Virus record (IMG/VR): IMGVR_UViG_3300044633_000631
Span: 14,741-78,740 of that record
Source: a virus
Direction: 5' to 3' (one strand)
Length of the DNA stretch: 64,000 nt
The position numbers and the translations under genes were made by a program. Shown piece after piece: positions 2,034-50,903 of this stretch. Numbering within the stretch: the stretch's first letter is position 1; every line of letters starts with the position of its first letter. Below the pieces are notes generated by a model that saw only the letters and a list, made by a program, of their open reading frames with translations, searched no databases and was not told where the DNA came from.

Positions 2034-2053
2034 TTTAGGGTTAATTTAACGGG
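2034..2053 (-). promoter_or_regulatory. repeated 20-nt motif (putative phage RNAP promoter, class II), copy 1
   Basis: + strand TTTAGGGTTAATTTAACGGG, intergenic, upstream of scaffold/capsid. Confidence 0.7.
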
Positions 2054-2147: not shown

Positions 2148-2168
2148 TTTAGGGTTAATTTAACGGGG
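2148..2168 (-). promoter_or_regulatory. class II motif, copy 2
   Basis: + strand TTTAGGGTTAATTTAACGGGG. Confidence 0.7.
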
Positions 2169-2330: not shown

Positions 2331-5300
2331 TTAGCCTATACCGTAAAATCCCCAATCATCCTCAAATTTAGTAGGATCAGGAATATCGCTCATTACATCT
2401 TTCTTTGTTAAGATGTCTGCTTCTGTTAATGTTTTACCACCGACAACTGATTTACCAGCAACTGGAATTAATCCTTTATCAATAGCTTCTTCTAAATATT
2501 GATCATATAATTCTTTTGGAAAACCTCTAGCTAACATTTCATCTAAAGTAACCTTGACAGGGTTCTTATCTAGTACGTTAGCATATAGCTTTCTTATACC
2601 CTTCCGGGCCTCCAGCATATCGGCTGCATTGGCGAAAAACGCATCGTGAATGGTGCTTGTGGCAATCTTATTGTCTCGTCCCCATAAATGGAAATTCTTG
2701 ACCAACGTAGCATCGTTTGAGTGATTCCCGTTAACGGCATATGCTGTTCGTGCTTTAGTCGCGTCTGCAATGTCATTTATCTTTCCTTCAGCATTTACTA
2801 CTTGTTCCCACCAAGTGGCTTCTGTTTTCTGTTGCACTTGAACTAAATTATTAACCCAATTACCATCTTTATCTTTATAGACTAATCTTTCTTCAAATGA
2901 CTGGGTAAAGTTTTGCTCAATAACTTTTCCATCAAAATTAACCCATGGGACATTAGTCCAAGACTTGGGCAGCTTATTAGCATAAAATATTTCAAAACCT
3001 TTAGAGATATTTAATTTTTCTATAGGCTCTACTTTAAATACTTTAAATCCAGTTCTACGATCTTTTGGGCCTTTTACACCATAAATAAGATCAGCCAAGG
3101 TTCCGTCAGGTTTCCAACCATCAAATCTCTTTAAAAACTTTTCAGACAAAGCTTCTCCAGGCCTTAATCCTAATATTTCACTAACTCTATCAGGTAATAC
3201 ATAACCCTTTTTACGGGTACCTAATATACTAGTAGCGCCTATAGATTTCCAATCTAATGCAGCTTGTGAAGGCTTAGCATTAGTTAAATAATCTTCAGCT
3301 AGCCTACCAAAGAATTTAGTAAAATCTTTAAGAATAGGAACCTGCTCACCTAAATGTTCAGACATTAATTTAGCAATAGCTTGGAAGTCTTTTGGAGTGA
3401 CAACCATATCATATGAACGTGTCATCTTTTCTACTAGGTCTTTAGTAGCTGGATCAAGGAAGTATAATTGTTCCATTATCTCATCACCAGGGTCTAGTCC
3501 TTTATTAAAGATGTCTTTTACATTTTCTCTTAATTGCTTAAGTTCTGCAGTTGTTTCAGGATCAAACTTTTCATATCTTGCTGCACGTGCCGATATTTCA
3601 TTTAATACTTTGTCTCTATCACTAGCTCTAACTACTAATGTAGGTGCAAATGTTTCAGGCTTTTTAGTTACATTAATCAATTCTTCTTGTAATGCTGAAC
3701 TAAGATCTGCTATAGTCTTTTCTGTGTTTGCAGTAGCAGGTGTAAATCCTGCATCTTCTAAAGCCATTTCAGCAGCTTGTTTATTTGTCTTTAAATTATA
3801 AACACTCGCTTCATCTTTAATGATAGTGTCTTCACCAAACCTGTTTGACTTTAAAATACGTTTTTGAGCTTCTAATAATTTAAAGGCTCTTGAATCGGAA
3901 GGGACATTTAAAGATTTTAAATGCTCATCTAAAAATTCACCGAGTTCTTCAACAACTTGCATAGCAATATATTTCTTAGTATCGCCTTTTGAGCGCTGTT
4001 CAAATTTAGCTTTATTTTCAGCTATCTTTTCTTTAGAAAATTTTTCACCAGTCTTATGATCAAATGTTTTATATGTAGCACGCTCTTTTCTTTCATCTGT
4101 TAATTCAATATCAGAAGTATGTAGCCATTTAAACGTATTTTTTAATTCTGCAGGAGACAACTGACCTTTCATAGCCTTTGAAATTAACTCACCTTGCGAT
4201 TTAATAATCTCATCTACTGTGCCTACATAATTAGGATCTGTTTTATTATCAACACCTAATACTCTTAACAATCCTGCAGAATCTTGACGCTCGGATAATA
4301 AACCTTCTGTTACTTTTGTTTCAACAGGTTTTGCAGGTTTCTTTTCCAATACTTTTGCAAGTTTACCTTCAACATTAAGAATTCCAGTTCTTTCTCCAGC
4401 ACCATAAAACGTAACCATATTTTGAGCTTTTGCAGCTTTACGTAAATCTTTCTCATTTAAACCTAATCTCTCATTTAAAACTTTAAACCGAGGATCATTA
4501 AAAGTTGCAGCAGCAATTTCATCATATAGCCTGCGTTTCTGATTTGTAGGTATGACATTAGATAACGAGGCTAACTGTTTGTTCTTCGTAGTTAACGCAA
4601 TAATCTGAGCACCTGATGATGAAGCATCTTGTTCTAAAGCTAAAGCTGTTTTGTATGCATTCATAGAGCCGCCGGCTTTAAGATGATTATCTATCTTAGC
4701 AGCTTCCATAGCAAATCTCATGAACTTACCAAGTTCCTCACCTTCAATTAATTGCACCATATCTGATTCCAGAATGGCACGTAAATCTGCAGGTCTGGCT
4801 CTTAGCATTTTATTACCAAGGTCTACCATATCTGGCCACAATTTATCAGCAATCTTTTGGCGTCCAGTAAATGACAATGAATTATATCTACCTTCAAATA
4901 CATCATTTAGACCCCCCATAAAGGCACCTATCTGATCTCTGAAGTTTCTATATCCATCTTCGCCAAGAACCTTTTCTACTTCAGTATTTAAGAAAGGTCT
5001 AAATGACTCTCCCGATTGCGGACTAATAAGGCCACGATCATAGATCCTAGCCCGATGATCGACAAAAGCATGATTACTGAAAGCGTAACCATTATTTCTA
5101 AGCCAATCCATAGATTTAAATCGCTCATATGCATCACCACGAGAAGAAATATAATGTTTATACTCGTTTAAATCATTATACTTTTTAGCATTACCACGAT
5201 CATCTTCAAAGTATAGTAATTTCTGAGTAAAGTCGTAAAAGTCATTATCAATTTTATACTTGGATTTGGATGCCCAGTTAAGTGCATCTGCCATATTCTT

Positions 5301-7658
5301 GTCAACAAATTCTACAGGAAAATCTGAAAAACTATTTGTTGATGTAATAGGTATTCTAGTATCTTCTAAACCGAGGACACCATTATCAATAAAATACGTT
5401 TTATAACCCTCGCGAAATAATAACTTATTCTTATCCGTTGTTACACCGACACGAAGGCCGACATCCACTTTCCGTGTGAGCTGTGAGTATTTTTGTACAC
5501 GCGGATCAGTAACACGTATATTATATGATAAGGTGTCATAATAGGGACCAAATAAAGAACCACTAAGTCTACTTTTCATTCTTCTTTTTTGAACACCATA
5601 TGTTTCAACTTCAAAGAAATTATTAACATTTTTAGCTTCAAGTAGCTTCATACCTGTTTCATACCATTTACGTCTAGTGCCGTTCATATTAGCAAGATTA
5701 TATAAATCTCTTCCTAATGCAATAGCAAACTGGTCTCTATCAGGCATATCTGCCATACTTAGCCTGTGAGCAAACTTTAGATAAAATTGCTGTAATGCAG
5801 ATTCAGTTAAACGTTCTTTACCGTTAGGCATTCTTTTTAATACTAAAGGAATTTTGTAATCAAATGTATTACGTAACTCTCTAGCTATTTTAGGTGATAT
5901 AGTGTCTTCCCAGTTATTCTTAGCACGAATATTATCAATGAAATTATCATGTAAGTCTTGTAATTGAGTTGGACCTAATACTGGATCAATATAATTATCT
6001 TGTTTGAGTTTCTTCAATACGTTGATATCACTACGTATCTGAGTTTCAATAGCATCAGAAACATTCATTACATCAAATTTAATTTGACCTTGTACTACAG
6101 CTTTAAAATTATTCCACTGTTCACCATTATTTCTAAATCTAGTAAATAATATACGCAGGTTATCTACCACGACTGCCCTTTCATTAGATCCCATTTTCTC
6201 ACTAAGTAATTCATTAAATTCCTTAATAAATTCCTTATCTTTAGGCTTTAGAACATTACTTTGTTCTGTCAATCTTAAGTTATTATTTAGTACGGACGGA
6301 TTGGGTTGGTATAGTCTTGTATCTTCGTATCGACCTGTGACAGGATTAAAAATGAGTTGATCTTCTGTTGGAAGACTATTAAGTACTCTTGCCTTGGCAG
6401 ATTTCTTAGTATGAATAAGACCACCCCTATAATTAGTGAGTGATAATGTACCGTCTAATTCACCTGATTGCAGTAAATAATAATCTTTAAGTGTTTGTAT
6501 AAGCTTAGTGTTGCCAATTAAATCATCAGGTGTCATGATTGGAAGTTGCATAGCATCAAGTTTAGCTTTAGCATTAGCAAACTTTTTTGTATCATTTGGC
6601 AGTGTATATGTGGGATCGGTCATCCGTCTTAATTCTTTAATCCCAATAGAATTACCTTCGGGATTAGTAAACTGATCTAAGGTAAGCTGCCCGCTTTGGA
6701 ACATACTAACTTTTTTATAATCACCTAAATGCCTTAATTGTACATCTTGTGGCTGACGCTTTAGCCAATCATTGTATGATTCTCTAAGTGGTGTATTACC
6801 GTCATAAAAAGCCTTTTGAGCATCAGTTAAGTTCTCAATATTTCTACGTCTTACTTGTGCTACGCTTTCTAAATCTGCTATATCGCTCCATGATTTAAAT
6901 ACAGGAACTGTTGTAGATCTACAATGCCAATGTGCTGGTGGGAGATGTGTTGTATCGCTAATCGGATAAATTTCACCATCTCTATGGGCACATACTGGGG
7001 TTGTTCGTGCGTCAAGGACAGCAACATATTGCCATCCTTGTAACGCTTTTTCATTTGCTTTATAAATAGCATGATCAGCCTGAGAGGATACAGCTGTAAT
7101 GGCTGTTATTACCAGACCTTTCGACTGCATGCGAGTTATATTATGTACATTTCCTGCACGTACTTGTAGAGCTATTTCATCTACGCTTTTTCCGTCAGCT
7201 ATACCCTTACGTATAACTGCTTCTAATCTAATTTTTTCATTCTTGGCAATACCTGACCATCCCTGTTCCATTGTACCATTTTCGCTTAATGGATTTTTAA
7301 GTACAATTTCTTCAGAGATTCTATTTTTAGGTCTTTCAGTACGCCATATTTTACCCATTGCCACTTCAACTTTTTGATAAGCATATGAGAGTTGATCTGA
7401 GACAAGTGATGAAAGATCTTTTTGAACAGAATTATTAATTGACTTATAAGTCTTTCTTAACTCTTGATCAACTGCTTCTCTGAATCTTTCAAAACCCCTG
7501 CCTGATAGTTCAGCATCTTTAATTAATTTATCTAGTCTAACAACATGACCATCAATTACTAAATCAACTTTACCAGAGACTCTTCTCTCATACAGACGGA
7601 TCATTGCTGCGCGATCTAGTGTTTTGTCGTATATTTGTGTATTACTATTAATGGTCAT
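2331..7658 (-). CDS. MuF/SPP1 gp7-like minor head protein fused to a T7-family single-subunit RNA polymerase (putative virion RNAP)
   Basis: N-terminal ~350 aa: WQYVAVLDARTTPVC..RDG..PPAHWHCRSTTVPV (MuF). C-terminal: DHRARIY, motif A EQDASSSGAQ, motif B RKAAKAQNMVTFYG, NGNHSNDA, motif C TIHDAF. Confidence 0.9.
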   Translation of the reverse strand: MTINSNTQIYDKTLDRAAMIRLYERRVSGKVDLVIDGHVVRLDKLIKDAELSGRGFERFREAVDQELRKTYKSINNSVQKDLSSLVSDQLSYAYQKVEVAMGKIWRTERPKNRISEEIVLKNPLSENGTMEQGWSGIAKNEKIRLEAVIRKGIADGKSVDEIALQVRAGNVHNITRMQSKGLVITAITAVSSQADHAIYKANEKALQGWQYVAVLDARTTPVCAHRDGEIYPISDTTHLPPAHWHCRSTTVPVFKSWSDIADLESVAQVRRRNIENLTDAQKAFYDGNTPLRESYNDWLKRQPQDVQLRHLGDYKKVSMFQSGQLTLDQFTNPEGNSIGIKELRRMTDPTYTLPNDTKKFANAKAKLDAMQLPIMTPDDLIGNTKLIQTLKDYYLLQSGELDGTLSLTNYRGGLIHTKKSAKARVLNSLPTEDQLIFNPVTGRYEDTRLYQPNPSVLNNNLRLTEQSNVLKPKDKEFIKEFNELLSEKMGSNERAVVVDNLRILFTRFRNNGEQWNNFKAVVQGQIKFDVMNVSDAIETQIRSDINVLKKLKQDNYIDPVLGPTQLQDLHDNFIDNIRAKNNWEDTISPKIARELRNTFDYKIPLVLKRMPNGKERLTESALQQFYLKFAHRLSMADMPDRDQFAIALGRDLYNLANMNGTRRKWYETGMKLLEAKNVNNFFEVETYGVQKRRMKSRLSGSLFGPYYDTLSYNIRVTDPRVQKYSQLTRKVDVGLRVGVTTDKNKLLFREGYKTYFIDNGVLGLEDTRIPITSTNSFSDFPVEFVDKNMADALNWASKSKYKIDNDFYDFTQKLLYFEDDRGNAKKYNDLNEYKHYISSRGDAYERFKSMDWLRNNGYAFSNHAFVDHRARIYDRGLISPQSGESFRPFLNTEVEKVLGEDGYRNFRDQIGAFMGGLNDVFEGRYNSLSFTGRQKIADKLWPDMVDLGNKMLRARPADLRAILESDMVQLIEGEELGKFMRFAMEAAKIDNHLKAGGSMNAYKTALALEQDASSSGAQIIALTTKNKQLASLSNVIPTNQKRRLYDEIAAATFNDPRFKVLNERLGLNEKDLRKAAKAQNMVTFYGAGERTGILNVEGKLAKVLEKKPAKPVETKVTEGLLSERQDSAGLLRVLGVDNKTDPNYVGTVDEIIKSQGELISKAMKGQLSPAELKNTFKWLHTSDIELTDERKERATYKTFDHKTGEKFSKEKIAENKAKFEQRSKGDTKKYIAMQVVEELGEFLDEHLKSLNVPSDSRAFKLLEAQKRILKSNRFGEDTIIKDEASVYNLKTNKQAAEMALEDAGFTPATANTEKTIADLSSALQEELINVTKKPETFAPTLVVRASDRDKVLNEISARAARYEKFDPETTAELKQLRENVKDIFNKGLDPGDEIMEQLYFLDPATKDLVEKMTRSYDMVVTPKDFQAIAKLMSEHLGEQVPILKDFTKFFGRLAEDYLTNAKPSQAALDWKSIGATSILGTRKKGYVLPDRVSEILGLRPGEALSEKFLKRFDGWKPDGTLADLIYGVKGPKDRRTGFKVFKVEPIEKLNISKGFEIFYANKLPKSWTNVPWVNFDGKVIEQNFTQSFEERLVYKDKDGNWVNNLVQVQQKTEATWWEQVVNAEGKINDIADATKARTAYAVNGNHSNDATLVKNFHLWGRDNKIATSTIHDAFFANAADMLEARKGIRKLYANVLDKNPVKVTLDEMLARGFPKELYDQYLEEAIDKGLIPVAGKSVVGGKTLTEADILTKKDVMSDIPDPTKFEDDWGFYGIG

Positions 7659-7677: not shown

Positions 7678-9276
7678 TTATTCCTTCATAGGTTTTGGTT
7701 TACTACCTGCAGCAGCCGCTTCTGACTGCATAGCATATTGATCATTATATTTTGTTGCAGCAGGAATGATTAATTCATCAGCGTTTACTTCTTGTAATGC
7801 GGCTTCATCATCATATTCAGAATCAAGAATATCATTTGCTTTTAACATCTGTAACCACACGCTTCTTGGTAATAAACCTGATTGATACCATTGAGTAACA
7901 AGATTCAACCAATCAGCACCTAAAGGCACTGGATCAAAATCTGCGGATAAATTAAACACAATATCACATGAATCAATTTGCAGGCCATATCTCCAGTTAA
8001 CCATTAAGCCTATTACTTGCTTTAATGTACTAGAGATTTTTGTACTCAACACACTTAATTGTGCCGTTTGAGCAGCATTACGAATTTCTAATGCAATACC
8101 TGATTGTTCATTTTCAGTTGTAAGCATTCTAATGCCAAGTTTAGCCATTTCATCAATAGATGCTTCAATAGCTTTTTGCATATCTTGTAATGCGTCTGTG
8201 GGTGTTTTTAAGACATCTGCTTTATCATCTTGGCGTAATCTTATCCAAGACCCTAATCCAGCGTCTACAATTTCATCAAATTGTTCATCAGGCATATCTG
8301 ACATAATAACAGGTGTATAAGTAGCTGCACCGTATAGTAAATGATTTCGTCTACTAATTTTATTATATAGGCTAATCTCTTTATCTACGATAGGCATTAA
8401 TAATGGCATAATAGGTTCTATATTACCATTAACAGGCCATGCAGGAATATGCTTTAGCGGTTCCCCGTTATTAAGTATATTGTCAAATGTTTCTATTAAT
8501 TCAAAATGGCCTGAAGGTAGTAATTGCTGCGCTTTCTCACCAATACCCCCTATTTTAAGAGTTTGATCACCATTATCTTTAGTTGTGCCCATGAACTTGC
8601 GGATTTGGTAATTACCTTGTTCGTTTAACTCATGCACCCATACCGTAGGGACTCTCAGAGCATGGAATTCATTAGTAGTATAATCTTCTGAGTAACCTTT
8701 AACAATTACATATTTTAAAACTGTTTTACCAAATACATCTACAGTTGTTGCCCAATTAACAATTGTTTCAGCTTTTTGCAAAATAGGATATGGTTTAATC
8801 ATATCTCTAGTTTCTTTATCTAAGTTCTCAACATCATTAACGGATGGGTGGTCTACAAATACCCATGCACGGGATGTATTGATCTCTTCCCACAATAGTT
8901 CATCAAGAAATGCCACTAGTGTAGAGTCATCACGTCCGATATTGTTGATAAGCCAATCTTTAGCTTCTTCAGGAACTTCATCTGGTAATGTCAATATAGG
9001 AGCTTTTCTTAATAAACCCCCAACAAGCATCTTAGCAAATTGTGCAGTAATGCCTGGTAATTCAGCTTCTGACTTATAAAAGTCATATTGAGCTTGGCTC
9101 ATTGTTGTAGAGAAGGGTATCAGCAAATTGCTAAATCTAATTAGATCAATATACTGATCCAACTCTTTTACAGTACGTTCCCCATTGCATACAGCACGTG
9201 CCTTATTCCACGAAGGTTTAAGATACTCATACGCTTGACAAGGATCCGCAACTGTCTTAGTAGGGCCGTATGTCAT
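7678..9276 (-). CDS. portal protein (DUF4055-like)
   Basis: 532 aa; Y-x-x-Y-K-x-x-A N-terminal motif, ESGIALEIR-like motif (EQSGIALEIR); position upstream of MuF. Confidence 0.8.
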   Translation of the reverse strand: MTYGPTKTVADPCQAYEYLKPSWNKARAVCNGERTVKELDQYIDLIRFSNLLIPFSTTMSQAQYDFYKSEAELPGITAQFAKMLVGGLLRKAPILTLPDEVPEEAKDWLINNIGRDDSTLVAFLDELLWEEINTSRAWVFVDHPSVNDVENLDKETRDMIKPYPILQKAETIVNWATTVDVFGKTVLKYVIVKGYSEDYTTNEFHALRVPTVWVHELNEQGNYQIRKFMGTTKDNGDQTLKIGGIGEKAQQLLPSGHFELIETFDNILNNGEPLKHIPAWPVNGNIEPIMPLLMPIVDKEISLYNKISRRNHLLYGAATYTPVIMSDMPDEQFDEIVDAGLGSWIRLRQDDKADVLKTPTDALQDMQKAIEASIDEMAKLGIRMLTTENEQSGIALEIRNAAQTAQLSVLSTKISSTLKQVIGLMVNWRYGLQIDSCDIVFNLSADFDPVPLGADWLNLVTQWYQSGLLPRSVWLQMLKANDILDSEYDDEAALQEVNADELIIPAATKYNDQYAMQSEAAAAGSKPKPMKE

Positions 9277-23369: not shown

Positions 23370-23389
23370 TTAGGGTTAATTTAACGGGG
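23370..23389 (-). promoter_or_regulatory. class II motif, copy 3
   Basis: TTAGGGTTAATTTAACGGGG upstream of the terminase operon. Confidence 0.7.
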
Positions 23390-23523: not shown

Positions 23524-23544
23524 TTTAGGGTTAATTTAACGGGG
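23524..23544 (-). promoter_or_regulatory. class II motif, copy 4
   Basis: TTTAGGGTTAATTTAACGGGG. Confidence 0.7.
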
Positions 23545-28799: not shown

Positions 28800-28819
28800 T
28801 TAGGGTTAATTTAACGGGG
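28800..28819 (-). promoter_or_regulatory. class II motif, copy 5
   Basis: TTAGGGTTAATTTAACGGGG. Confidence 0.7.
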
Positions 28820-40973: not shown

Positions 40974-40987
40974 ATATAATTTCCAAA

Positions 40988-41017
40988 TAAAAGGCACCCC
41001 AGTATTAGTGAGGTGCC
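40988..41017 (-). terminator. possible hairpin/terminator
   Basis: GGCACC...GGTGCC with downstream TTTT on minus strand. Confidence 0.4.
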
Positions 41018-41024
41018 GATTTTG

Positions 41025-41729: not shown

Positions 41730-41733
41730 ATAT

Positions 41734-42225
41734 TTAGAATACGTCATCGTCAGTTTCATTACTGCTGAATTCACGTTCATATTCTGTCTCACCGAAATCA
41801 TCTTCGCTGATACGTGGAGTATATACTATATGCTTTGTTAATTGTACTGTCATAAGGGTAAAGCCTTTCTTTGTAACCCCCATTGGATCTTTATATTCGT
41901 ATTCAAATACACGAATATTACCGATGGATCCATTTCCAATCGTGTTGGGATCAATAGGTCTTAATTTACCATCAATCAATTTCACAGGTTCATTTGGTGT
42001 ACCGTCTGATTTAATAGACTTCTTTTTCAGATTAGCTCTGAAATATGTATCACCATCATCTGGAACGATAGCCTTGACAGTCAATCCAATAGCTTCCCAT
42101 TCTTTCTTTTTCTCTTTGTCGGTAGTCCGAATTTGGAGTTCCCATGTAGGATTTTCTTTATTAAACTTGCCGTTTGGTTTACCAAGTTTAGCGAAATAAA
42201 TTTCTACGTCATATAACTTTGCCAT
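41734..42225 (-). CDS. ssDNA-binding protein (T7 gp2.5-like)
   Basis: Start MAKLYDV at 42225; IGNGS motif; acidic tail ending in F. Confidence 0.8.
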   Translation of the reverse strand: MAKLYDVEIYFAKLGKPNGKFNKENPTWELQIRTTDKEKKKEWEAIGLTVKAIVPDDGDTYFRANLKKKSIKSDGTPNEPVKLIDGKLRPIDPNTIGNGSIGNIRVFEYEYKDPMGVTKKGFTLMTVQLTKHIVYTPRISEDDFGETEYEREFSSNETDDDVF

Positions 42226-42251
42226 TGCTGTTCTCTCTTTTGATTTCTGAA

Positions 42252-42271
42252 TTAGGGTTAATTTAACGGGG
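42252..42271 (-). promoter_or_regulatory. class II motif, copy 6
   Basis: TTAGGGTTAATTTAACGGGG, 27 nt upstream of SSB; overlaps hairpin GGGTCTCTA/TAGAGACCC (42269-42294). Confidence 0.72.
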
Positions 42272-42301
42272 TCTCTAAGCATTTATAGAGACCCACATTT
42301 A

Positions 42302-42712
42302 TTAGGAAATATTTACTGATTCTTGCACGTTTTCATTTACTTTAGCAAGTTCTTCTGGAATGAACCAAACCGGACCGCCTGCATTTGTAGTGATGAAATG
42401 AAACTCATACCAGTCAGAGTCTTCGATTTTTCGAGCAATATCAAATGAACCAGGATCTAACGCAAGATTAGTTTCTCTAAATACACCATTATCATCCATG
42501 CCCATAAATGTTACATGCAAGAAATCTCCAAAAGATTCTAGAATATGAAGATTACCGCCAAATTCATGAATGTAACCTGCAGCATCATGTGTGCTCATTA
42601 AGATGTTTGAAAAGTGTTGCCACAGTGGTTTCCAATGCGGATGATCTTCTTTTCCATAAAAGAAGTCGCGTACATGTGAGTTTTGTCTAAATGTAATCAT
42701 GCTTTTAACCAT
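42302..42712 (-). CDS. hypothetical protein
   Basis: 136-aa ORF; ITTNAGGPVWFIP. Confidence 0.6.
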   Translation of the reverse strand: MVKSMITFRQNSHVRDFFYGKEDHPHWKPLWQHFSNILMSTHDAAGYIHEFGGNLHILESFGDFLHVTFMGMDDNGVFRETNLALDPGSFDIARKIEDSDWYEFHFITTNAGGPVWFIPEELAKVNENVQESVNIS

Positions 42713-42832
42713 TCTGAAAATAAATTAATATAACGATCAACTGTTGCTACAGAATCCTCGTATCCACTTTTGCCTTCACCTAGCATTGCTCTTAATAGCT
42801 TAAGCAAACTAAGTACTTCAATTACTTCTTCT

Positions 42833-43000
42833 TTAAGCACTAGCATTATCTCGTACCATAGCTTGAACATAAAGTGGAGTAACATCGGGAGGTGCGCATG
42901 CTGCAACTCCGCCCAGTGGCATCCAACCTTGGTGCAATAGCTCTACTACCATGTTTTCTAAAAGTTTACAGCTTACAGCTTCTAATAATTGATATTGCAT
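42833..43000 (-). CDS. DUF1737-like small protein (not in ORF track)
   Basis: MQYQLLEAVSCKLLENMVVELLHQGWMPLGGVAAC...YVQAMVR. Confidence 0.55.
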   Translation of the reverse strand: MQYQLLEAVSCKLLENMVVELLHQGWMPLGGVAACAPPDVTPLYVQAMVRDNASA

Positions 43001-43004
43001 TTGA

Positions 43005-43211
43005 CTAATCATTTCTTATACCTGTTCTTTCTTTAGCTTTAAGTTGTCTTTCCCAATTAACTAAATATGGTTCAATGGATTCTTTATCCCATGTGGCATC
43101 TGCTCCATGATTAGGTAATCGTCCTGAATACAATGCCATACCTAGTTGCATCTGGTTGATACCTAATCTAATCATTACATCTCTAGTGCTTACTCTCATT
43201 TTTGATTCCAT
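43005..43211 (-). CDS. HTH (excisionase/MerR-like) DNA-binding protein
   Basis: STRDVMIRLGIN...GRLP...W. Confidence 0.55.
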   Translation of the reverse strand: MESKMRVSTRDVMIRLGINQMQLGMALYSGRLPNHGADATWDKESIEPYLVNWERQLKAKERTGIRND

Positions 43212-43497
43212 GAATAATTATAATCGTTTCAAGTTCAGCAATCTTATCTTGAAGTTTTTCATTCAGTTCAGATTGTGTACGCGCAACCTTATACCAATGA
43301 ATATTCTTATACATTACAAAAAGTAATGAGCACCATAGTGCTATATCACCGTAAGACATCATCTATTTTTACCTCTATAATTTTTAATATATCAATTCCA
43401 AAGATTCTAAGAGGAATATAAAAAATGAATAGCAATACAAATAATGGTATTACCACCGCCAATGAAAACATGGCTTGACAAATATCTTTAAACATAA

Positions 43498-43764
43498 TTA
43501 TTTCCACATTGCCGATTGTTGTTGTTGATTCAAAGTCAGACTCTTGACTTTATTCTCAAATGCTACTAATGTAACATATTCTTCTCCAGCTAAGTAAGCG
43601 GTTTTATACATATGATCAATATTACTATCTAGTAATGCTCTATCAAGCATATGTTTATTTCGTGGTGTGAATGTTTCATCATTCCACTGGTCACAGACGT
43701 ATTCCTCAAATGCGTCTATCTCTAAATTTAAAACATAGTTAATCGTACTCAGAATATTATCCAT
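43498..43764 (-). CDS. hypothetical protein
   Basis: Likely start MDNILS after AAGGAG. Confidence 0.55.
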   Translation of the reverse strand: MDNILSTINYVLNLEIDAFEEYVCDQWNDETFTPRNKHMLDRALLDSNIDHMYKTAYLAGEEYVTLVAFENKVKSLTLNQQQQSAMWK

Positions 43765-43774
43765 TTGGTTCTCC

Positions 43775-44161
43775 TTAGAAAAATAATAAATCGCCAATTT
43801 TTACCATTTTAACATTTGTTCTGAAGCGCTTGCCTAAAGGCACATTATTAAAATGCGTATAGCCTTCTGTTAATTTAGTAGTTCTGAGATTTCTGAATAA
43901 CATTTTTCGCGCCAATTCATATTGCTTATCCAACACATCTCTATCGGCTTTACCTTTAGGGTGGGGTGTTTTCATACCATGTCGTGCCCATGTAAACAAA
44001 CCTGGATCACGTTGAATAACATGACATAGATTTTCTCCTGGACGTGCGTGTTCAATTAATACTTGACCTACACCTAACATAGTATCAACTGGTTGGTTTC
44101 TTGCCTCGAAATACATTACAGCTACGAGACAACCTATTGATGTTAACATACTTTCCTCCAT
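43775..44161 (-). CDS. SleB-like cell wall hydrolase (Hydrolase_2)
   Basis: CLVAVMYFEARNQP...VGQV...C.VI....FTW...THF...IGDLLFF. Confidence 0.8.
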   Translation of the reverse strand: MEESMLTSIGCLVAVMYFEARNQPVDTMLGVGQVLIEHARPGENLCHVIQRDPGLFTWARHGMKTPHPKGKADRDVLDKQYELARKMLFRNLRTTKLTEGYTHFNNVPLGKRFRTNVKMVKIGDLLFF

Positions 44162-44202
44162 TTTTGTTTTGAGCAGTTAAAGCATACTCAGGCTTTTATT
44201 AG

Positions 44203-44550
44203 CTATTCCAGCTCTTTGTAGAATTTAACAATGAGTCGCGGAGGAATTGGTGAATACAGCTGTAAGGGATTTACCTCGGTATTCACACAAGCCGAAATAC
44301 CACAACAGCTACTAGCTGTCTCAAAAGAAACCTCTACTTCATCAGTTACTGGATTAACCATAATCGTGTTTATCATATCATACACAGGGCCACTTACCTC
44401 ATGCGCAGCTTTATTTTGATAATAGACTCGCGCATGCAAACCCAGGGTATATACTTCCTTTGGACCTGATACAGCATCTTCATCGGTCAGTGTCAAGTAG
44501 CCTATTTTCTCGTAAGCTGCCACAAGTAACTCTGCAATCGTTGTCGGCAT
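44203..44550 (-). CDS. hypothetical protein
   Basis: Likely start MPTTIA. Confidence 0.5.
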   Translation of the reverse strand: MPTTIAELLVAAYEKIGYLTLTDEDAVSGPKEVYTLGLHARVYYQNKAAHEVSGPVYDMINTIMVNPVTDEVEVSFETASSCCGISACVNTEVNPLQLYSPIPPRLIVKFYKELE

Positions 44551-44551
44551 A

Positions 44552-44869
44552 TCAGTAAACCTCCACGAAATTAATTTGATAAGACCAATCATCGCCTTTG
44601 ACGATGAAGATTTCAAAATTACATCCTGGATCAATCTCTTCTTGATCTACTCGCTGACAAAAAGAATTCGGGTCGCAGCTACGACACACTTTCATGAAGT
44701 CTTCCACACGTCCGTTAAAATCTTCAAAAACATCTTTAATGTCATTTTCTGTAAATGTTGAAACAACTTCGACAACGCCATTACAATTCCAAATAACATG
44801 TGCATAAAGCTTTTTCCCAAGGCAATTATTCAACAAAAAAGCATTGGATTCTTCTTTTGAAATAAACAT
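44552..44869 (-). CDS. hypothetical protein
   Basis: Likely start MFISKEE. Confidence 0.5.
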   Translation of the reverse strand: MFISKEESNAFLLNNCLGKKLYAHVIWNCNGVVEVVSTFTENDIKDVFEDFNGRVEDFMKVCRSCDPNSFCQRVDQEEIDPGCNFEIFIVKGDDWSYQINFVEVY

Positions 44870-44870
44870 A

Positions 44871-45074
44871 TTAACCCCATTTTTGTAAGATAAAAATTGT
44901 GTAAGATCCGTGGTAACCTTCTGTACCACCTGTTGTAATTACATCTGTTAATTCATATTCAGATTCCATTAATGCTTGTAGTTCAGAGTAGTCAGCTTTA
45001 TGGCCAACAGCAATGTTTAGTATCTTTACTTCGTGTTTCTTCTTTGGTTGTGTTAAACCTATTACATTGCTCAT
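44871..45074 (-). CDS. hypothetical protein
   Basis: Likely start MSNVIG, overlapping the upstream stop. Confidence 0.5.
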   Translation of the reverse strand: MSNVIGLTQPKKKHEVKILNIAVGHKADYSELQALMESEYELTDVITTGGTEGYHGSYTIFILQKWG

Positions 45075-45355
45075 ACCGCAAATCCATACCATTTGCCAAC
45101 AGGCATTATCGGGTTAGCAAGAAACTTGCACATCGGATTTGTGATCTCAATGGCTTCTCTCTCTTTCTTTCTTAAGTTATGCATACATGCTTTTAAATCA
45201 ACACCACTATAAACATAAGTTATGCTACCGTTTTTATTACGTATAGAATCTACTGGATCTGCTTGACTTTTTACGATACGTGTACGAACAGTATTAGGTG
45301 TTGTTCCAGTCAATTCTGCGTATTCATGTATTGTAAATCTTTGTGGCTGTGTCAT
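45071..45355 (-). CDS. HTH DNA-binding protein
   Basis: FTIHEYAELTGTTPNTVRTRI; directly downstream of RNAP. Confidence 0.65.
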   Translation of the reverse strand: MTQPQRFTIHEYAELTGTTPNTVRTRIVKSQADPVDSIRNKNGSITYVYSGVDLKACMHNLRKKEREAIEITNPMCKFLANPIMPVGKWYGFAV

Positions 45356-45363
45356 ATAAACTC

Positions 45364-47583
45364 CTATGCGAAAGCGTATTCGCTTTCTAGAATTAAATTA
45401 ATATCAAGATCACCCATCTCAAGATAAGTAAGATCTCCGTCAATATCATCCATTATTGGAAACAATGGATTATCTTTATAAAGTTCTACAAATGTCTCGC
45501 GAACTATTCTAAAGAGATTTGGCATGTCAGCAAATAAACAACCATAGCTGTCATGAATTGTTGTAATTGTAAAATCACAACGGTGTGTAGTAAGTGCTAA
45601 GTGTGCTGCATCTAAACTATGAATAACGTTAGGTGCTGCTCCTTGAGACTGCTTACCTTTACTAGGAACCACATCTTCAATAAAACATATTGCTAATTGA
45701 AAAGTGTTTTCATAATAACCTGTAGATTTACGTGACCCAACTGGTGGCCCATACTGTACATAAATCTTTTTAACTTTACCTTCTGTATAATTTTGTACCA
45801 CAGGAAAGTTTACTATTGGAACATTCCATGATAAAAATTCTTCAATTTTCTCACAGTTTCTTCCGGCATTCTCAAATATATTTAACAGCCTCATTGGCTT
45901 CTCTAATGAAGCTTTACAATCTTCAAATACTAATCTGCCCAGCCAAGCTCCCCATTTATGCTCCATATGAAGTAGCAAGTCTATTCCATGCTTTTTTGCA
46001 TCAAGGATTTGTTGCTCTCCCAATCCATAGCTGCTACCTCCATAAGGAAGAGTCATAGTGTTTCTTTTAACTATCTTCCTTCTTTGTTTCAAATCCTTTA
46101 TACGATTCCAAAATACAGGTGCTGCAACAGAGCCAATATCAGCCCATTGTTGTTTATAGGCTTTAATTTGAGCTACTAGTTGATTCCTAATTTCAGACTT
46201 AGGTTCGGATGCAGTAATCTTTTTCTTTAATTTAATTAAGCCATCTATAAAATCTTCACATTGAAAGATTAAATCCGCTGGCATTCTTGCTATGTCATTA
46301 GATATTTTATTCCATACATGTTCGGCAACATATGCATATAAATCACCTGGAAGTTCTAATGGAATTAAATTAACATATGGAGCTGTTATTTCATCTCTTG
46401 TTAATGCAGATAAATGTTGTGAGCCGTTCGTTGATCCGTCAATAAAACATTCAACATGTGACTCATACTCTAAATATCTTGGTCCCAATTTTAAAGCATT
46501 TCTTAATTCAATACATGCACTTAAGAATTGCCATGGCTTATCTCCTGACATCCATCCTTGATTTACTTTTGGACTTTCTGCATATGATAATAAAATCTCT
46601 TGATTGTCTAATACCCACTGATATCGGTCTTTGAGATTGATCTTATCCGTCTTTGCACCATCTTCACGTCCTGATGAACCTGCCCAGTTACTGGCGATAG
46701 ATACACATAGCCAAAAGAAACCCTCTTCACCAATTACTTTCTTATCTTGACGCATTAAAAGACCTTTAGCAATATCACTAGATTGTTCATGGAGATATGC
46801 CGTTGTTGGATATTTCCTTCCACGGAAATCAAGGTAATACATATGGTAAAATACAGTATCCATGAACTTATCTGCTATAGATAGAATAGCTTTTGTTTCC
46901 CTTAATTTAGTAGTCTTAGCTTGAGGATTTTGCTGCTCCCATATATCACTAAATGCATCAGTATGGTTATTCAATGCCCATTTAGAAACATTATAAACTT
47001 CTTTGTTTATTTGCCAACCCGTATTTAAGCTCTTATTTACTGAATCAAATACTATAGGATGTGTTGCAGGTGTTAATTTTGTTGGAACATCTTTATTACC
47101 CGTCTTGACTAATACTTGTCCAGTAGGGTGTTTGAATTCTGTATAAGATTCATATGGTGTTACTGAAGGTAATTTACCCTTGGCACCTTCTCTGCTTACA
47201 CTTTCCCATAGTAATTGTATTGTCGCATCATCTAAGACTTCTACAATATATGTTGCATGACCATTACCAGCAGAACCTAGTACTGCTCTAAGCATTCCAA
47301 GCTCTTCAAATGAGTATAGTATGAATGCACCAGTCTTAGCCGCAACAGATGAATCTTTCTTTAAACCTCGTCTTACTGAATGCCCAATAATGCTAATGAC
47401 TTCTACCATTAATATTTGTTTGTTTACAGCACCTCTCTTTGGACGAGTGTATAAGTATACGTTAGATATTATTACATCTAATACGCTTTCTAAGTCAATT
47501 TCTTTTAGAAATTTTAGCGGACTTTGAGGAGCTATTTCTAATTGCATCCTTCTTTTTAATGACTTCAATAGTTGTATTCTCAT
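45364..47583 (-). CDS. T7-family single-subunit DNA-directed RNA polymerase
   Basis: DFRGRKYP, DKPWQFL, motif A DGSTNGSQHL, motif B RKIVKRNTMTLPYG, APNVIHSLDAAHL, motif C IHDSYG. Confidence 0.96.
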   Translation of the reverse strand: MRIQLLKSLKRRMQLEIAPQSPLKFLKEIDLESVLDVIISNVYLYTRPKRGAVNKQILMVEVISIIGHSVRRGLKKDSSVAAKTGAFILYSFEELGMLRAVLGSAGNGHATYIVEVLDDATIQLLWESVSREGAKGKLPSVTPYESYTEFKHPTGQVLVKTGNKDVPTKLTPATHPIVFDSVNKSLNTGWQINKEVYNVSKWALNNHTDAFSDIWEQQNPQAKTTKLRETKAILSIADKFMDTVFYHMYYLDFRGRKYPTTAYLHEQSSDIAKGLLMRQDKKVIGEEGFFWLCVSIASNWAGSSGREDGAKTDKINLKDRYQWVLDNQEILLSYAESPKVNQGWMSGDKPWQFLSACIELRNALKLGPRYLEYESHVECFIDGSTNGSQHLSALTRDEITAPYVNLIPLELPGDLYAYVAEHVWNKISNDIARMPADLIFQCEDFIDGLIKLKKKITASEPKSEIRNQLVAQIKAYKQQWADIGSVAAPVFWNRIKDLKQRRKIVKRNTMTLPYGGSSYGLGEQQILDAKKHGIDLLLHMEHKWGAWLGRLVFEDCKASLEKPMRLLNIFENAGRNCEKIEEFLSWNVPIVNFPVVQNYTEGKVKKIYVQYGPPVGSRKSTGYYENTFQLAICFIEDVVPSKGKQSQGAAPNVIHSLDAAHLALTTHRCDFTITTIHDSYGCLFADMPNLFRIVRETFVELYKDNPLFPIMDDIDGDLTYLEMGDLDINLILESEYAFA

Positions 47584-47785
47584 CTGATCCTTTGCTGTTT
47601 AAAATACTGGAGAACGCACATAGTAGTAATAAATTAAATATCGGCATTGTCACCACTATTTACTAAATGTACTACTGTTGCCATAATTACTACAGGTGTA
47701 GTCAATCCGAATAATACGGAAGCTAACCATACTGTTGCCGCATAATTTAATGTATTAGTCATAGAAAGAAAAAAATAAGGGTTAA

Positions 47786-47843
47786 CCCTCCCACATCCCT
47801 AATACACCCCCAATTAAGGGAATGTATTAGGGATGTGGGAGGG
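47786..47843. terminator. perfect 21-bp inverted repeat (terminator or RNase III-type hairpin)
   Basis: CCCTCCCACATCCCTAATACA (47786-47806) / TGTATTAGGGATGTGGGAGGG (47823-47843); T-rich tract follows on minus strand. Confidence 0.65.
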
Positions 47844-47880
47844 GATATTCTTACTTACAGAGTCAACAGACTCTGACTTT

Positions 47881-48273
47881 CTATGGCAGTGTTCGAAGCT
47901 CTTTAAGTAGTTCGTAATCCTTTTTGCCTATATAGATCGGGTTGAGGGACCCTTTTAAATTTACAACTGGATAAACACTTATTCCATCTTTTACAAATTC
48001 CTTTAAAAGATAGATATCTTCAACATCTAACTTTTTAGCACTGAAAGTATATTCCGGTGGTTTATCTTTTTTGTCCACTGGATAGTGACCTTCTAGAACA
48101 ATATAACCATTCCACTTAGCCTCCTTTGCTAAACGTCTTAATTCACGTTTAGCTTTTATAGCTTCAAGTTTTTTCTTCTTCTTAAAATCCTCATCAGCTT
48201 CTTTTATGAAGTCTTGACAGTCTTTAGTAAAGAAGATCCCAACTGCAATTGCCACAATCCAAAGAGGGTTCAT
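47881..48273 (-). CDS. early protein with N-terminal TM anchor
   Basis: 130 aa; AGGAGG RBS. Confidence 0.6.
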   Translation of the reverse strand: MNPLWIVAIAVGIFFTKDCQDFIKEADEDFKKKKKLEAIKAKRELRRLAKEAKWNGYIVLEGHYPVDKKDKPPEYTFSAKKLDVEDIYLLKEFVKDGISVYPVVNLKGSLNPIYIGKKDYELLKELRTLP

Positions 48274-48545
48274 AGTAACAACCCTCCTAAAAGGAATGGT
48301 ACAATGAGTATAATGTCAAACACTAGCCTCCCGATATTAAGCAAATAGTGATACATATACCAGCTGTTGATTCCAACTGGCATTGTTACAACTGCAACAG
48401 CTCCAATTACAACTGCTGTAGCAGCTATAGTTGATGTTACAATTTCCACTTGAGCCTCAATAGCGGTCTCAGCAGGTGTTCTTGAGTCTTCTAGTTTGTT
48501 TAAAACTAAGGCACCCAAACCAACAAGTAATACTAATGGTATCAT
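48270..48545 (-). CDS. early hydrophobic membrane protein
   Basis: 91 aa, about 3 hydrophobic segments. Confidence 0.55.
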   Translation of the reverse strand: MIPLVLLVGLGALVLNKLEDSRTPAETAIEAQVEIVTSTIAATAVVIGAVAVVTMPVGINSWYMYHYLLNIGRLVFDIILIVPFLLGGLLL

Positions 48546-48823
48546 TTCTTTTCTCCAAATAATGCATCAAATAAAGTGTATACAGCAAAGCCAACAACTA
48601 CCCCTGCTACAATAGGGTTTAATACAACAGCTGTTCCTGTTGCAGCAGCTGTCGCAAACGGTGTAACAATCGTTTGTGCACCTACTTGTAAGGCTGTTCG
48701 TGTAACAACTACAGAAGCTACTTCTGCAATTATTATTGGCGCTTGCGCAGCTACGTAAGAGCCTGCGAGATATCCAGCTGATACTGGGGCCACTACATCT
48801 AAAACTTTGCTTAGTTCGCTCAT
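48542..48823 (-). CDS. early Ala/Val-rich hydrophobic protein
   Basis: 93 aa; GAGG RBS. Confidence 0.55.
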   Translation of the reverse strand: MSELSKVLDVVAPVSAGYLAGSYVAAQAPIIIAEVASVVVTRTALQVGAQTIVTPFATAAATGTAVVLNPIVAGVVVGFAVYTLFDALFGEKK

Positions 48824-48852
48824 TGTAAGCTTCCTCTTGGAATGTGAAGTTA

Positions 48853-49104
48853 TTAAAGATTAATTTTGAATGAATAAATGCCTTTTTCAGATATACGTAG
48901 GTCTGAGCCTTCATGCATCCAAATAAGATAGCCAGCTTCTCCTACGTCGAGTGTGCTAACAATAGCCCAGGGATTTCCATCAGGCGGATATATTGCTGTT
49001 ACTTCAGAGTTATTTCTTTTTCCTTCATAAACTTGACCTGTTAATTCAGAGTCATTAAGAAGATTTAATTCTACTATTACACATGCAATTTTAATTAATT
49101 TCAT
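48853..49104 (-). CDS. early hypothetical protein
   Basis: 83-aa ORF with AAGG RBS. Confidence 0.55.
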   Translation of the reverse strand: MKLIKIACVIVELNLLNDSELTGQVYEGKRNNSEVTAIYPPDGNPWAIVSTLDVGEAGYLIWMHEGSDLRISEKGIYSFKINL

Positions 49105-49319: not shown

Positions 49320-49343
49320 TCATATAAGATACCTCTTTTTCCG
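49320..49343 (-). promoter_or_regulatory. repeated 24-nt motif (putative early/class I promoter), copy 1
   Basis: Minus strand CGGAAAAAGAGGTATCTTATATGA, just after a UUCG terminator. Confidence 0.55.
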
Positions 49344-49346
49344 CGT

Positions 49347-49375
49347 TTAAAAGGGATAGTCCGAAGACCATCCCT
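49347..49375 (-). terminator. intrinsic terminator
   Basis: Minus strand AGGGATGGTC-TTCG-GACTATCCCT-TTT. Confidence 0.7.
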
Positions 49376-49857: not shown

Positions 49858-49881
49858 TCATATAAGATACCATTATTTCCG
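49858..49881 (-). promoter_or_regulatory. class I motif, copy 2
   Basis: Minus strand CGGAAATAATGGTATCTTATATGA, upstream of the first early ORF. Confidence 0.55.
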
Positions 49882-49941
49882 TATTAGGAATTAACAATTA
49901 ATGGATAATGACTAAAGGGTTAATTGAGGGGGGACGTCTGA

Positions 49942-49958
49942 AGGGTTAATTCAACGGG
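49942..49958 (-). promoter_or_regulatory. class II motif, variant copy 7
   Basis: AGGGTTAATTCAACGGG (1 mismatch in the core). Confidence 0.5.
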
Positions 49959-49959
49959 T

Positions 49960-50230
49960 TCGGTGCTGAAAACTGCGACACGCCCCGCACTGAGAGTGCC
50001 AGTTCTGCGACCAGAAACTGCCCTACACGGCACGCGGACGGCACGCTGCCCCCTCAGTGATGCCCCCGTCTCAGGCGGCCCACACACGCCCAACTTTGAG
50101 AGGTGTGAAATCTGCCCGTCTCTGCCACGCTGAGGCTGCCCCATGCCTGTCGTATAGCTGGCCACTCAGTCGCCACGTCTACCCCCGTTCCTGTGCGAAT
50201 AAATGCCCCAACCGTAGTCAGGGCATCTCA
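49960..50230. other. GC-rich non-coding block (possible genome terminus/packaging or origin region)
   Basis: Abrupt GC rise in an AT-rich genome, between phoH and the early genes; no credible ORF. Confidence 0.45.
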
Positions 50231-50234
50231 AATT

Positions 50235-50903
50235 TTACAAATAGGCTTTCACAATTTCTTTACAGATACCACTACGTACAATATCATCAACATCAAAAGT
50301 AACTATACCAACTTTATTAATACCATGTAATCTAGTAATAGCATCAGCTAATCCTGAATTACCTTTAATATCTTTCTGTTGTATATCACCATCAATAACT
50401 ACTTTAGTATTCTCACCAATTCTAGTTAAGAACATTTTCATTTGAGCAGGAGTACAATTTTGAGCTTCATCTAATAATACGAATGTATTTTCAAATGTAC
50501 TTCCTCTGATAAATGCCAATGGTCTTGCTTCAATTACTTTACGTTTAAATAAGTAATCTGTAAATGAATGACCTAATCTTTTGTTTAATATATCTTTTAT
50601 TGGATCAACGTAGGGAGCATATTTTTCCTCAAGCTCTCCTGGTAAGTATCCAAACGATTCACCGGCTTCTACCGCAGGCCTTGTAACAATGATCTTTGAT
50701 ATTCGCTTGTTCTGTAGTAATTGAGCAGCATATGATAATGCTACATATGATTTACCTGTACCAGCAACCCCAACACCAAATGTTATTATATTTGATTTGA
50801 TGGAATTTAAATATCTTTTCTGTGCATCTGTTAAAAGCTGTAAGTCCTTTTCAGTAGTGGGTTCTACAACGTTTTCTTCAGTACGTCTAGATTTTTTCGC
50901 CAT
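50235..50903 (-). CDS. phoH: PhoH family ATPase
   Basis: GVAGTGKS, TRPAVEAGE..GYLPG, RGSTF, DEAQN, GD..QKD, DIVRS. Confidence 0.95.
   Translation of the reverse strand: MAKKSRRTEENVVEPTTEKDLQLLTDAQKRYLNSIKSNIITFGVGVAGTGKSYVALSYAAQLLQNKRISKIIVTRPAVEAGESFGYLPGELEEKYAPYVDPIKDILNKRLGHSFTDYLFKRKVIEARPLAFIRGSTFENTFVLLDEAQNCTPAQMKMFLTRIGENTKVVIDGDIQQKDIKGNSGLADAITRLHGINKVGIVTFDVDDIVRSGICKEIVKAYL

Follow-up and report, generated by a model that had tools for sequence, protein, structure and literature searches.

A free and a MuF-fused RNA polymerase of T7 type, and a candidate transcription relay, in a freshwater siphovirus-type phage

Why should a single long-tailed phage encode two T7-type RNA polymerases (RNAPs), and which genes would each of them transcribe? 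The question is raised by a stretch of 64,000 nucleotides (nt), here called the window, that represents bases 14741-78740 of a 78,740-bp phage contig (78.7 kb; GC content 37%; IMG/VR record IMGVR_UViG_3300044633_000631). The contig has a 58-bp terminal overlap, and the genome is therefore complete and circularly closed. The virus is a freshwater long-tailed (siphovirus-type) phage, with morphogenesis genes of siphovirus type. An earlier note, made from the letters of the window alone, had described a stand-alone 739-residue T7-like RNAP (RNAP739), a second RNAP fused to a MuF head protein, and a cascade in which the injected enzyme makes early RNA, that of RNAP739 included, and RNAP739 then transcribes the middle and late operons. 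Here, we describe a computational analysis of the two enzymes, of the promoter-like motifs placed along the genome and of the distribution of both in related phages. We consider it probable, with real room left for other schemes, that a two-polymerase relay operates in which a packaged fused enzyme starts the infection and the free enzyme reads most genes.

The free enzyme proved to be what the earlier note had taken it for, with matches to both Pfam and PHROG families (Table 1) and its motifs where they had been placed. RNAP739 scores 220.9 bits in a profile search with PF00940, against a cut-off of 22, and shares 28% identity with T7 RNAP over 647 residues (E 1e-52). The motifs DGSTNGSQH, PNVIHSLD and IHDS lie at residues 382, 651 and 677, respectively. 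In an alignment with T7 RNAP and its relatives, residues D537, R627, K631, Y639, G640, H784, H811 and D812 of T7 correspond to D382, R502, K506, Y514, G515, H655, H677 and D678 of RNAP739, and the T/DxxGR residues D421, R423 and R425 of T7 correspond to D252, R254 and R256. With all catalytic residues present, RNAP739 looks active as far as its sequence can tell. Its N-terminal domain is about half that of T7 (residues 1-157 against 1-295), its specificity loop is longer than that of T7, and it has no AT-rich recognition loop in the alignment with T7, the segment equivalent to T7 residues 93-101 being deleted. Short N-terminal domains occur in other phage RNAPs too, so this feature does not bar RNAP739 from T7-like membership.

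The second, MuF-fused enzyme was likewise recovered as described, in an open reading frame (ORF) of 1775 codons directly downstream of the portal gene. No other protein of this genome matches MuF. Its Phage_Mu_F domain occupies residues 146-250 (PF04233, 53.3 bits against a cut-off of 29.6) and its RNA_pol domain residues 1607-1716 (PF00940, 39 bits against a cut-off of 22), and phrog_414 is matched at residues 864-1096. Its motifs DHRARIY, DASSSGAQI, VNGNHSND and IHDA lie at residues 867, 1011, 1642 and 1671. Four residues do not vary among 35 sequences of the fused-enzyme family, with identities down to 19%, namely D1011 (motif A), D1672 (motif C), R871 (T/DxxGR) and D1649; conservation of K1074, K1077, Y1085, G1086 and H1646 is 90% or more. 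An AlphaFold (AF2) model of residues 621-1775 has a predicted local distance difference test score (pLDDT) of 78.4 and a predicted template modelling score of 0.75; the polymerase core is modelled with high confidence, and low confidence is confined to a 230-residue insertion and a few loops. A Foldseek search with this model returned T7 RNAP elongation complexes as top matches (6e-14, probability 1). In VIA-align comparisons the model matches T7 and mitochondrial RNAPs with Z scores of 27-29, a root-mean-square deviation of about 3 Å over about 505 residues and 17-18% identity, against a Z score of about 20 and 11-12% identity for the N4 mini-virion RNAP. A profile of the fused family agrees, matching T7 RNAP at 4e-33 and mitochondrial RNAPs at about 1e-24, N4 RNAPII weakly and the N4 virion RNAP not at all. 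On the model, the C-terminal 1150 residues form a full T7-type polymerase, including an equivalent of the N-terminal domain, and the conserved residues make this fused RNAP, too, look active.

The 230-residue insertion is in frame, rich in lysine and glutamate, and lies just after motif B; it coincides with the low-pLDDT stretch of the model and is not present in most relatives. Homologous stretches occur inside further giant proteins (P0178, P0179 and P0182; lengths of 3748, 1660 and 1183 residues), and one relative, P0015, has in its place a GNAT-like insertion before motif A. We rejected an intein or a known domain as its identity, as Pfam matches were all sub-threshold.

Because the fusion is the sole MuF (SPP1 gp7-type) minor head protein of the phage, it would be expected to take its place beside the portal during procapsid assembly and to be ejected together with the DNA. 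The packaging and ejection of the fused enzyme would make it available to a newly infected cell.

The two enzymes are not products of a recent duplication, as the earlier note had concluded from their motifs (DGSTNGSQH against DASSSGAQI, PNVIHSLD against VNGNHSND), and these differences were found at the places given above. RNAP739 and the fused enzyme share about 22% identity over 200 residues (E 1e-4). A tree was built from 22 sequences (661 columns), with support from the Shimodaira-Hasegawa-like approximate likelihood ratio test (SH-aLRT). In it, RNAP739 groups with its homologues from the relative G001, from DSS3_VP1 and from Pelagibacter phage Kolga (SH-aLRT 97), beside the RNAPs of the Autographiviridae (99). 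The fused enzyme falls in a separate clade with DSS3_VP1 gp108 and metagenomic MuF-fused proteins (SH-aLRT 100), and the N4 enzymes form long branches elsewhere, outside the MuF-fused clade. Separate, well-supported clades and low identity indicate that these are two old lineages that have travelled together.

The relatives that we compared were G001, G002, G003, G004, EBPR siphovirus 1, DSS3_VP1 and Kolga. The co-occurrence tally covers four complete contigs and DSS3_VP1. Both RNAP genes are present in all four of the complete relatives (74-81 kb), where the homologue of RNAP739 is 58-91% identical, and the cultured DSS3_VP1 (Naomviridae) has two RNA_pol loci, gp080 and the 1463-residue gp108, the latter annotated solely as "head morphogenesis" despite its RNA_pol match. 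Kolga has one locus, a free RNAP. Homologues of the fused protein form at least 380 clusters at 90% identity, mostly of about 1541 residues, with both Pfam domains and on contigs of 65-90 kb; clustering at 50% leaves 147 representatives, and canonical T7-like RNAPs are matched weakly. Among viral contigs, the search for distant relatives gave no usable pattern with the A1 profile, none with P0202 and only five with P0136. A search of the openly accessible literature yielded no account of a MuF-fused RNAP, of a pair of RNAPs in such phages or of a relay like the one proposed below.

Intervening sequences mark both genes at the same motif. The free RNAP gene of G003 has a group I intron precisely at motif B (Rfam, 78 bits; L102 1331-1564), and the gene is split at this same site in G004 and in several viral contigs, although for G004 no intron model gave a match. 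The fused gene of EBPR siphovirus 1 is interrupted at its own motif B by an element that resembles a group I intron and contains an HNH ORF (L002 28901-29127; 40.5 bits, E 2e-8, which is below the Rfam gathering score of 50). Group I introns home to conserved sites of genes that splicing has to restore, and their presence at motif B of both RNAP genes therefore fits genes that must give intact enzymes.

Which promoters each enzyme might read depends on the layout of the genome, in which nearly all large ORFs of the window lie on the minus strand. Their order begins with tail genes and a PhoH gene, ending at 50235, and continues through a 270-bp GC-rich non-coding block into small ORFan early genes (49821-47881). 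A strong terminator is followed by a 42-residue ORF and the RNAP739 gene, by thirteen further small ORFs, and by a T7-like replication module encoding a kinase, DNA polymerase I, an exonuclease, a primase-helicase, ribonucleotide reductase and a ligase. Next come a block of unknown genes, the terminase, fibre genes, the portal and the MuF-RNAP gene, and, last, scaffold, capsid and tail genes and a 5,362-residue tape-measure protein that spans the contig junction. The earlier note had put RNAP739 at the end of the early genes, just before the replication module; the gene does lie ahead of the module, but about 3 kb of small ORFs (45355-42302) intervene, and the terminator (47844-47769) stands between it and the early ORFs.

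Two classes of conserved motif punctuate this layout. Class 2, CGGAAA-N4-GGTATCTTATATGA (24 nt), occurs twice against 0.05 copies expected, both upstream of the RNAP739 gene and only there. The first copy is kept in G001, G003 and DSS3_VP1. G001 has two copies, upstream of its RNAP gene, and G003 has three, two of which are so placed; in DSS3_VP1, GGCATCTATAATGA occurs twice within a 43-nt repeat at the head of the early region, right after the tape-measure gene. Conservation extends over about 24-26 nt in phages of 37-47% GC, including one cultured on Ruegeria, and class 2 has no conserved inverted repeat or hairpin.

Class 1, CCCGTTAAATTAACCCT (17 nt), is present seven times in the window, where 0.01 copies would be expected; six copies are perfect and the seventh deviates at one position. 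Each of them is on the coding strand and within a non-coding spacer. These copies precede the replication module, with a start codon 28 nt downstream, as well as the block of a 204-residue gene, and stand as tandem pairs before the terminase operon and between the MuF-RNAP and scaffold genes; the variant copy stands at the very head of the early region. Three copies (49958, 23543 and 2167), which we call subtype Ia, have an extra CGTCCCCC plus an AT-rich element, and each of them has another promoter-like site 75-155 nt downstream. Class 1 is kept at matching places in G001 and G003, and the G001 counterpart of the variant copy at 49958 is a perfect match. EBPR siphovirus 1 has a class-1 variant, ACCGTTnnnTTAACCCA, before the terminase gene and after the MuF-RNAP gene, and DSS3_VP1 has a repeat of its own, ATAGGGTGCGTTAAAGAGGGGG, in six copies, of which the terminase and portal regions have three and the stretch just after the RNAP gene the other three.

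Contigs from RNA libraries (three runs from one freshwater sample), from which neither starts, ends nor strand can be read, cover the RNAP739 gene at a depth of 8-35 and the window from 42244 to 47479 at 8-40. Directly downstream of the class-1 copy at 42270 the depth is 120-390 (40748-42243), a 10- to 30-fold rise that agrees, as a weak hint, with a promoter there; the contig breaks at 42249/42250 may merely reflect the repeated motif. Cover is zero at 47480-48975, which proves nothing.

The relay that we favour would proceed in three steps. The fused enzyme, ejected with the DNA, would read both class-2 promoters at the head of the early region. It would thereby make the early RNAs and, by read-through of the conserved terminator, the RNAP739 mRNA. 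RNAP739, in turn, would read the class-1 promoters, which precede the replication module and both the terminase/tail and the scaffold/capsid operons; the late operon includes the gene for the fused enzyme, and its product would be loaded into the particles of the next generation. An enzyme made after infection cannot be the first to read the promoters of its own gene region; the reader of class 2 therefore has to be present at time zero, and would be either the packaged enzyme or the host RNAP. Class 1 would need a reader made later, for which RNAP739 is the only encoded candidate, and the class-1 motifs before the late operons argue for a phage enzyme on the late genes. The pairing of each enzyme with one motif class, and independence from the host RNAP, would follow from this arrangement. 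The cascade of the earlier note is supported in part, by intact catalytic residues in both enzymes, by two conserved and suitably placed motif classes and by a layout found in all complete relatives tested; what complicates it is the terminator ahead of RNAP739 and the early class-1 copy.

These two and several other observations weigh against the relay. The terminator separates the class-2 promoters from the RNAP739 gene, and no promoter-like motif follows it. A similar terminator lies upstream of the RNAP gene in G001, G002, G004 and DSS3_VP1; in the last three it is at most about 30 nt from the start codon, abuts the gene directly and leaves no space for a promoter. RNAP739 expression therefore needs read-through or antitermination, and the conservation of the terminator suggests a deliberate gate. 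We looked for a third motif upstream of the RNAP739 gene, and in six genomes the only shared element was the hairpin plus AACCCTTATTTTTTT. A 42-residue hydrophobic ORF (47634-47762) sits between the conserved terminator and the start of RNAP739. The class-1 copy at 49958, in turn, puts the supposed later promoter at the very head of the early region. Comparison of the specificity loops with the divergence of the motifs yields no assignment of enzyme to motif, as the loops of the two enzymes are 35% and 38% identical between the window and DSS3_VP1 and so have diverged equally. Class 2 contains a -10-like hexamer, TATATG in the window and TATAAT in DSS3_VP1, and TTGACA/G lies about 17 nt upstream of two of the G003 copies. 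Neither the paper on the Naomviridae (PMC8323127) nor the later paper on the deoxyuridine (dU)-containing DNA of DSS3_VP1 mentions an RNA polymerase. Finally, when 185,579 prokaryote genomes were scanned for the 26-nt CGCGGAAAAATCGGTATCTTATATGA, exact copies appeared in three contigs of metagenome-assembled genomes (MAGs), one of Crenothrix and two of Cellvibrionales, which have no phage polymerase or homologue of the proteins of this phage nearby. The MAG copies lie ahead of unknown ORFs, beside genes for a resolvase, a helix-turn-helix transposase, MazE/PIN and WYL proteins. They are compatible with either a host-read promoter or islands that listen for a phage polymerase, and they give a hint of gammaproteobacterial hosts. 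A Lachnospiraceae match to class 2, with a different spacer and a coding-looking context, was taken as chance.

The alternative that best withstands the evidence is a T7-style programme, in which the host RNAP reads class 2 and makes both the early RNAs and that of RNAP739, RNAP739 reads class 1, and the fused enzyme is an auxiliary that draws DNA in, primes replication or serves as a back-up transcriptase. The hexamers of class 2 and of the G003 copies would then be parts of an ordinary host promoter, for which copies in MAG contigs lacking a phage polymerase would be natural. Kolga gets by with a free RNAP alone, and the near-unidirectional layout with the RNAP gene before the replication genes is that of T7. 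Against this, the conserved 24-26 nt go well beyond what sigma-70 needs, and are kept across phages of such different base composition. No -35-like hexamer is found at the class-2 copies of the window and G001, and the early region shows no excess of sigma-70-like sites (24, where 33 would be expected). Kolga, with its free RNAP and no fused one, has no class-2 motif in its early region. Furthermore, selection has kept the catalytic residues of the fused enzyme invariant, so it must polymerise something. We therefore rate this programme as unlikely, if the most durable of the rivals.

A second alternative has both enzymes reading class 1, the packaged one starting at 49958, with class 2 a host promoter or some other signal; DNA entry and terminators, and not the specificity of promoters, would then govern timing. 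The class-1 copy upstream of the whole early region, perfect in G001, would be explained at once, and the extra downstream element of the three subtype-Ia copies makes class 1 heterogeneous. The two enzymes differ, however, in both the length and the sequence of the specificity-loop region, and class 2 is as strictly conserved as class 1 and confined to the early region. The phiOL promoter of T7 is a phage promoter ahead of the early genes, yet it is not the early promoter of T7. Decidedly improbable on these grounds, this alternative is still better placed than a fused RNAP part that no longer transcribes, as structural cargo, plug or primase-like domain, and leaves the phage one real transcriptase: the fold does tolerate large additions (the insertion by motif B, the GNAT insertion in P0015), but the motifs T/DxxGR, A, B and C, all intact and with little or no variation within the family, the confidently modelled core and the intron-like element of EBPR siphovirus 1, which suggests splicing back to an intact frame, make that hardly credible.

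The relay is nearest in logic to that of N4 (Schitoviridae), where gp50, then RNAPII (gp15/gp16), then the host RNAP act in turn. As in N4, a T7-superfamily RNAP is part of a giant protein thought to be delivered with the DNA, few early promoters lie at the entering end, and a separate class serves the later genes; one of the early genes encodes the second phage RNAP, and it lies downstream of promoter-like motifs of a class that is absent elsewhere in the window. The differences are considerable. N4, a podovirus, does not have its gp50 fused to a MuF protein; the N4 virion RNAP reads hairpin promoters on single-stranded DNA, whereas class 2 is without a conserved hairpin; the second N4 enzyme is a split heterodimer, whereas RNAP739 is a single chain, sister to the RNAPs of the Autographiviridae; and the late genes of N4 use the host RNAP, whereas class 1 heads the late operons here too. 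Profile, tree and structure comparison agree that the fused enzyme is outside the N4 gp50 lineage. The description in the earlier note, an N4-like logic built from different parts, is a fair one, the fused enzyme being nearer to T7 and mitochondrial RNAPs (Z 28) than to the N4 virion RNAP (Z 20).

The Thermus phage P23-45, a siphovirus, has a virion RNAP fused to the tape-measure protein (gp96) and a non-virion RNAP (gp64), and its virion RNAP transcribes the pre-early genes, including the gene for the second, non-virion RNAP (PMC10770324). The two phages share an RNAP fused to a structural protein, which in P23-45 leaves the particle at infection, and a giant tape-measure protein (5,002 residues there). 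Both P23-45 enzymes are, however, two-barrel enzymes of cellular type, whereas both enzymes here are right-hand T7-type ones, and the carrier is the tape-measure protein there and a portal-associated MuF head protein here. In functional terms, the N4 relay and the P23-45 pair are the nearest systems, and the present one differs from both in its T7-type enzymes, MuF carrier, long tail and own motifs before the late operons.

With T7 itself, the phage shares a homologue of the gene 1 RNAP, reading in nearly one direction, an RNAP gene before a similar replication module, and 17-nt conserved motifs before operons, some in tandem and followed by AT-rich DNA, with one copy, like phiOL, before the early genes. 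A virion RNAP is absent from T7, its early RNA is made by the host RNAP, and the N-terminal domain of its enzyme is much longer than that of RNAP739. The primary origin of T7 consists of the tandem promoters phi1.1A/B followed by AT-rich DNA, which the tandem class-1 pairs at 23372-23543 and 2037-2167 resemble; by this analogy they might double as replication origins.

The roseophages DSS3_VP1 and DSS3_PM1 (Naomviridae; PMC8323127) have a gp080 RNAP (35% identity), a gp108 fusion and the same gene order. As in the window, DSS3_VP1 has the class-2 homologue twice at the head of its early region and a repeated motif of its own downstream of the RNAP gene. It differs in that its proteins are about 31-35% identical, its class-1 sequence is ATAGGGTGCGTTAAAGAGGGGG, its DNA contains dU and its host is a marine alphaproteobacterium. 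Among deposited records, EBPR siphovirus 1 (JF412302) comes nearest in its fused enzyme (56-61% identity) and shares class-1 variants; the record is partial, without the early region and the free RNAP, and its MuF-RNAP gene is split at motif B and annotated as three genes.

If the relay holds, the phages that deliver an RNAP would be joined by a large group of long-tailed ones with a global distribution, and with a new manner of polymerase loading through a portal-seated MuF fusion. The fused RNAP also re-annotates a gene filed as "head morphogenesis" in deposited genomes. To our knowledge, virion-delivered RNAPs have been recognized in only a few phage groups, namely N4-like, crAss-like and phiKZ-like phages and P23-45. 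Together with their candidate cognate promoters (17 and 24 nt), the two new enzymes of T7 type could serve as orthogonal expression tools, and the relay may help to explain how unusual phage DNA, such as the dU-containing DNA of the Naomviridae, is transcribed. As both DSS3_VP1 and its host, Ruegeria pomeroyi DSS-3, are cultured, the relay is directly testable. A broader proposal is that a widespread siphovirus-type family, reaching from freshwater relatives of EBPR siphovirus 1 to marine Naomviridae, runs a programme free of host RNAP, and that bacterial islands with copies of its early promoter sense the incoming polymerase. This we put forward tentatively, as an idea that is itself rather unlikely; were it true, the class-2 copies of chromosomal islands, beside toxin-antitoxin, WYL and resolvase genes, would be a defence trigger or a satellite switch.

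Table 1. Coordinates of polymerase genes, motifs and associated signals; positions are those of the window unless a contig is named.
Feature	Position	Strand	Basis or context
RNAP739, stand-alone 739-residue T7-like RNAP	45364..47583	(-)	Pfam RNA_pol 3.7e-65; phrog_414 3e-112
MuF-RNAP fusion, 1775 residues, candidate virion RNAP (vRNAP)	2331..7658	(-)	Pfam Phage_Mu_F + RNA_pol; phrog_241, phrog_414
MuF / SPP1-gp7-type head-morphogenesis part of fusion, residues 1-350	6609..7658	(-)	phrog_241 5e-62, residues 1-349; PF04233
Complete T7-type RNAP part of fusion, residues 621-1775 (predicted)	2331..5798	(-)	model, fold match, family profile
In-frame K/E-rich insertion of 230 residues, 1108-1337, just after motif B	3648..4337	(-)	alignment with P0004, P0013, P0016
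Class-2 copy a	49858..49881	(-)	37 nt upstream of first early ORF
Class-2 copy b	49320..49343	(-)	directly after UUCG hairpin terminator
UUCG-loop hairpin and T-run closing first early unit	49349..49373	(-)	read from sequence
Strong hairpin, stem of about 21 bp, then AACCCTTATTTTTTT	47769..47844	(-)	between early ORFs and 42-residue ORF plus RNAP739
Class-1 variant CCCGTTGAATTAACCCT, subtype Ia, with downstream CGTCCCCCC/AT-rich extension	49942..49958	(-)	very head of early region
Class-1 copy before replication module	42254..42270	(-)	start codon 28 nt downstream
Hairpin abutting class-1 motif	42269..42294	(-)	likely end of RNAP739 transcription unit
Class-1 copy before 204-residue gene block	28802..28818	(-)	motif match
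Class-1 copy, subtype Ia, first of tandem pair ahead of terminase/late operon	23527..23543	(-)	motif match
Class-1 copy, second of tandem pair ahead of terminase/late operon	23372..23388	(-)	motif match
Class-1 copy, subtype Ia, first of tandem pair between MuF-RNAP and scaffold/capsid genes	2151..2167	(-)	motif match
Class-1 copy, second of tandem pair between MuF-RNAP and scaffold/capsid genes	2037..2053	(-)	motif match
Portal protein gene	7678..9276	(-)	phrog_145 2.8e-56; immediately upstream of MuF-RNAP gene
Exact class-2 copies in MAG contigs	L122 3819-3842; L123 2724-2747; L124 7088-7111		genome scan

Beyond the two polymerase genes and their motifs, several features of the window deserve mention. 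The early ORFs have no informative match among PHROGs and none to a known inhibitor of host RNAP, and no Rfam family is matched anywhere in the window. The non-coding block at 49960-50235, between PhoH (the last late gene) and the early region, is about 60% GC within the 37% GC genome, contains many GGGGCAG-like words and is kept in G001. A structured RNA was considered for this block (49935-50240) and rejected, with a fold z-score of 0.07 and no Rfam match; the block could be a packaging site or the physical genome end. The tape-measure ORF runs from window position 59459 to 64000 and beyond (G000:C1 1-11605 plus 74199-78740), crosses the contig junction, and has 105-bp tandem repeats at 63440-64000; its product in the circularised genome exceeds in length that of P23-45. 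Two free-standing homing-endonuclease genes are present, one SegE-like, of GIY-YIG type, between the exonuclease and primase-helicase genes (37520-38035), and one of HNH type inside the block of unknown genes (26522-26983).

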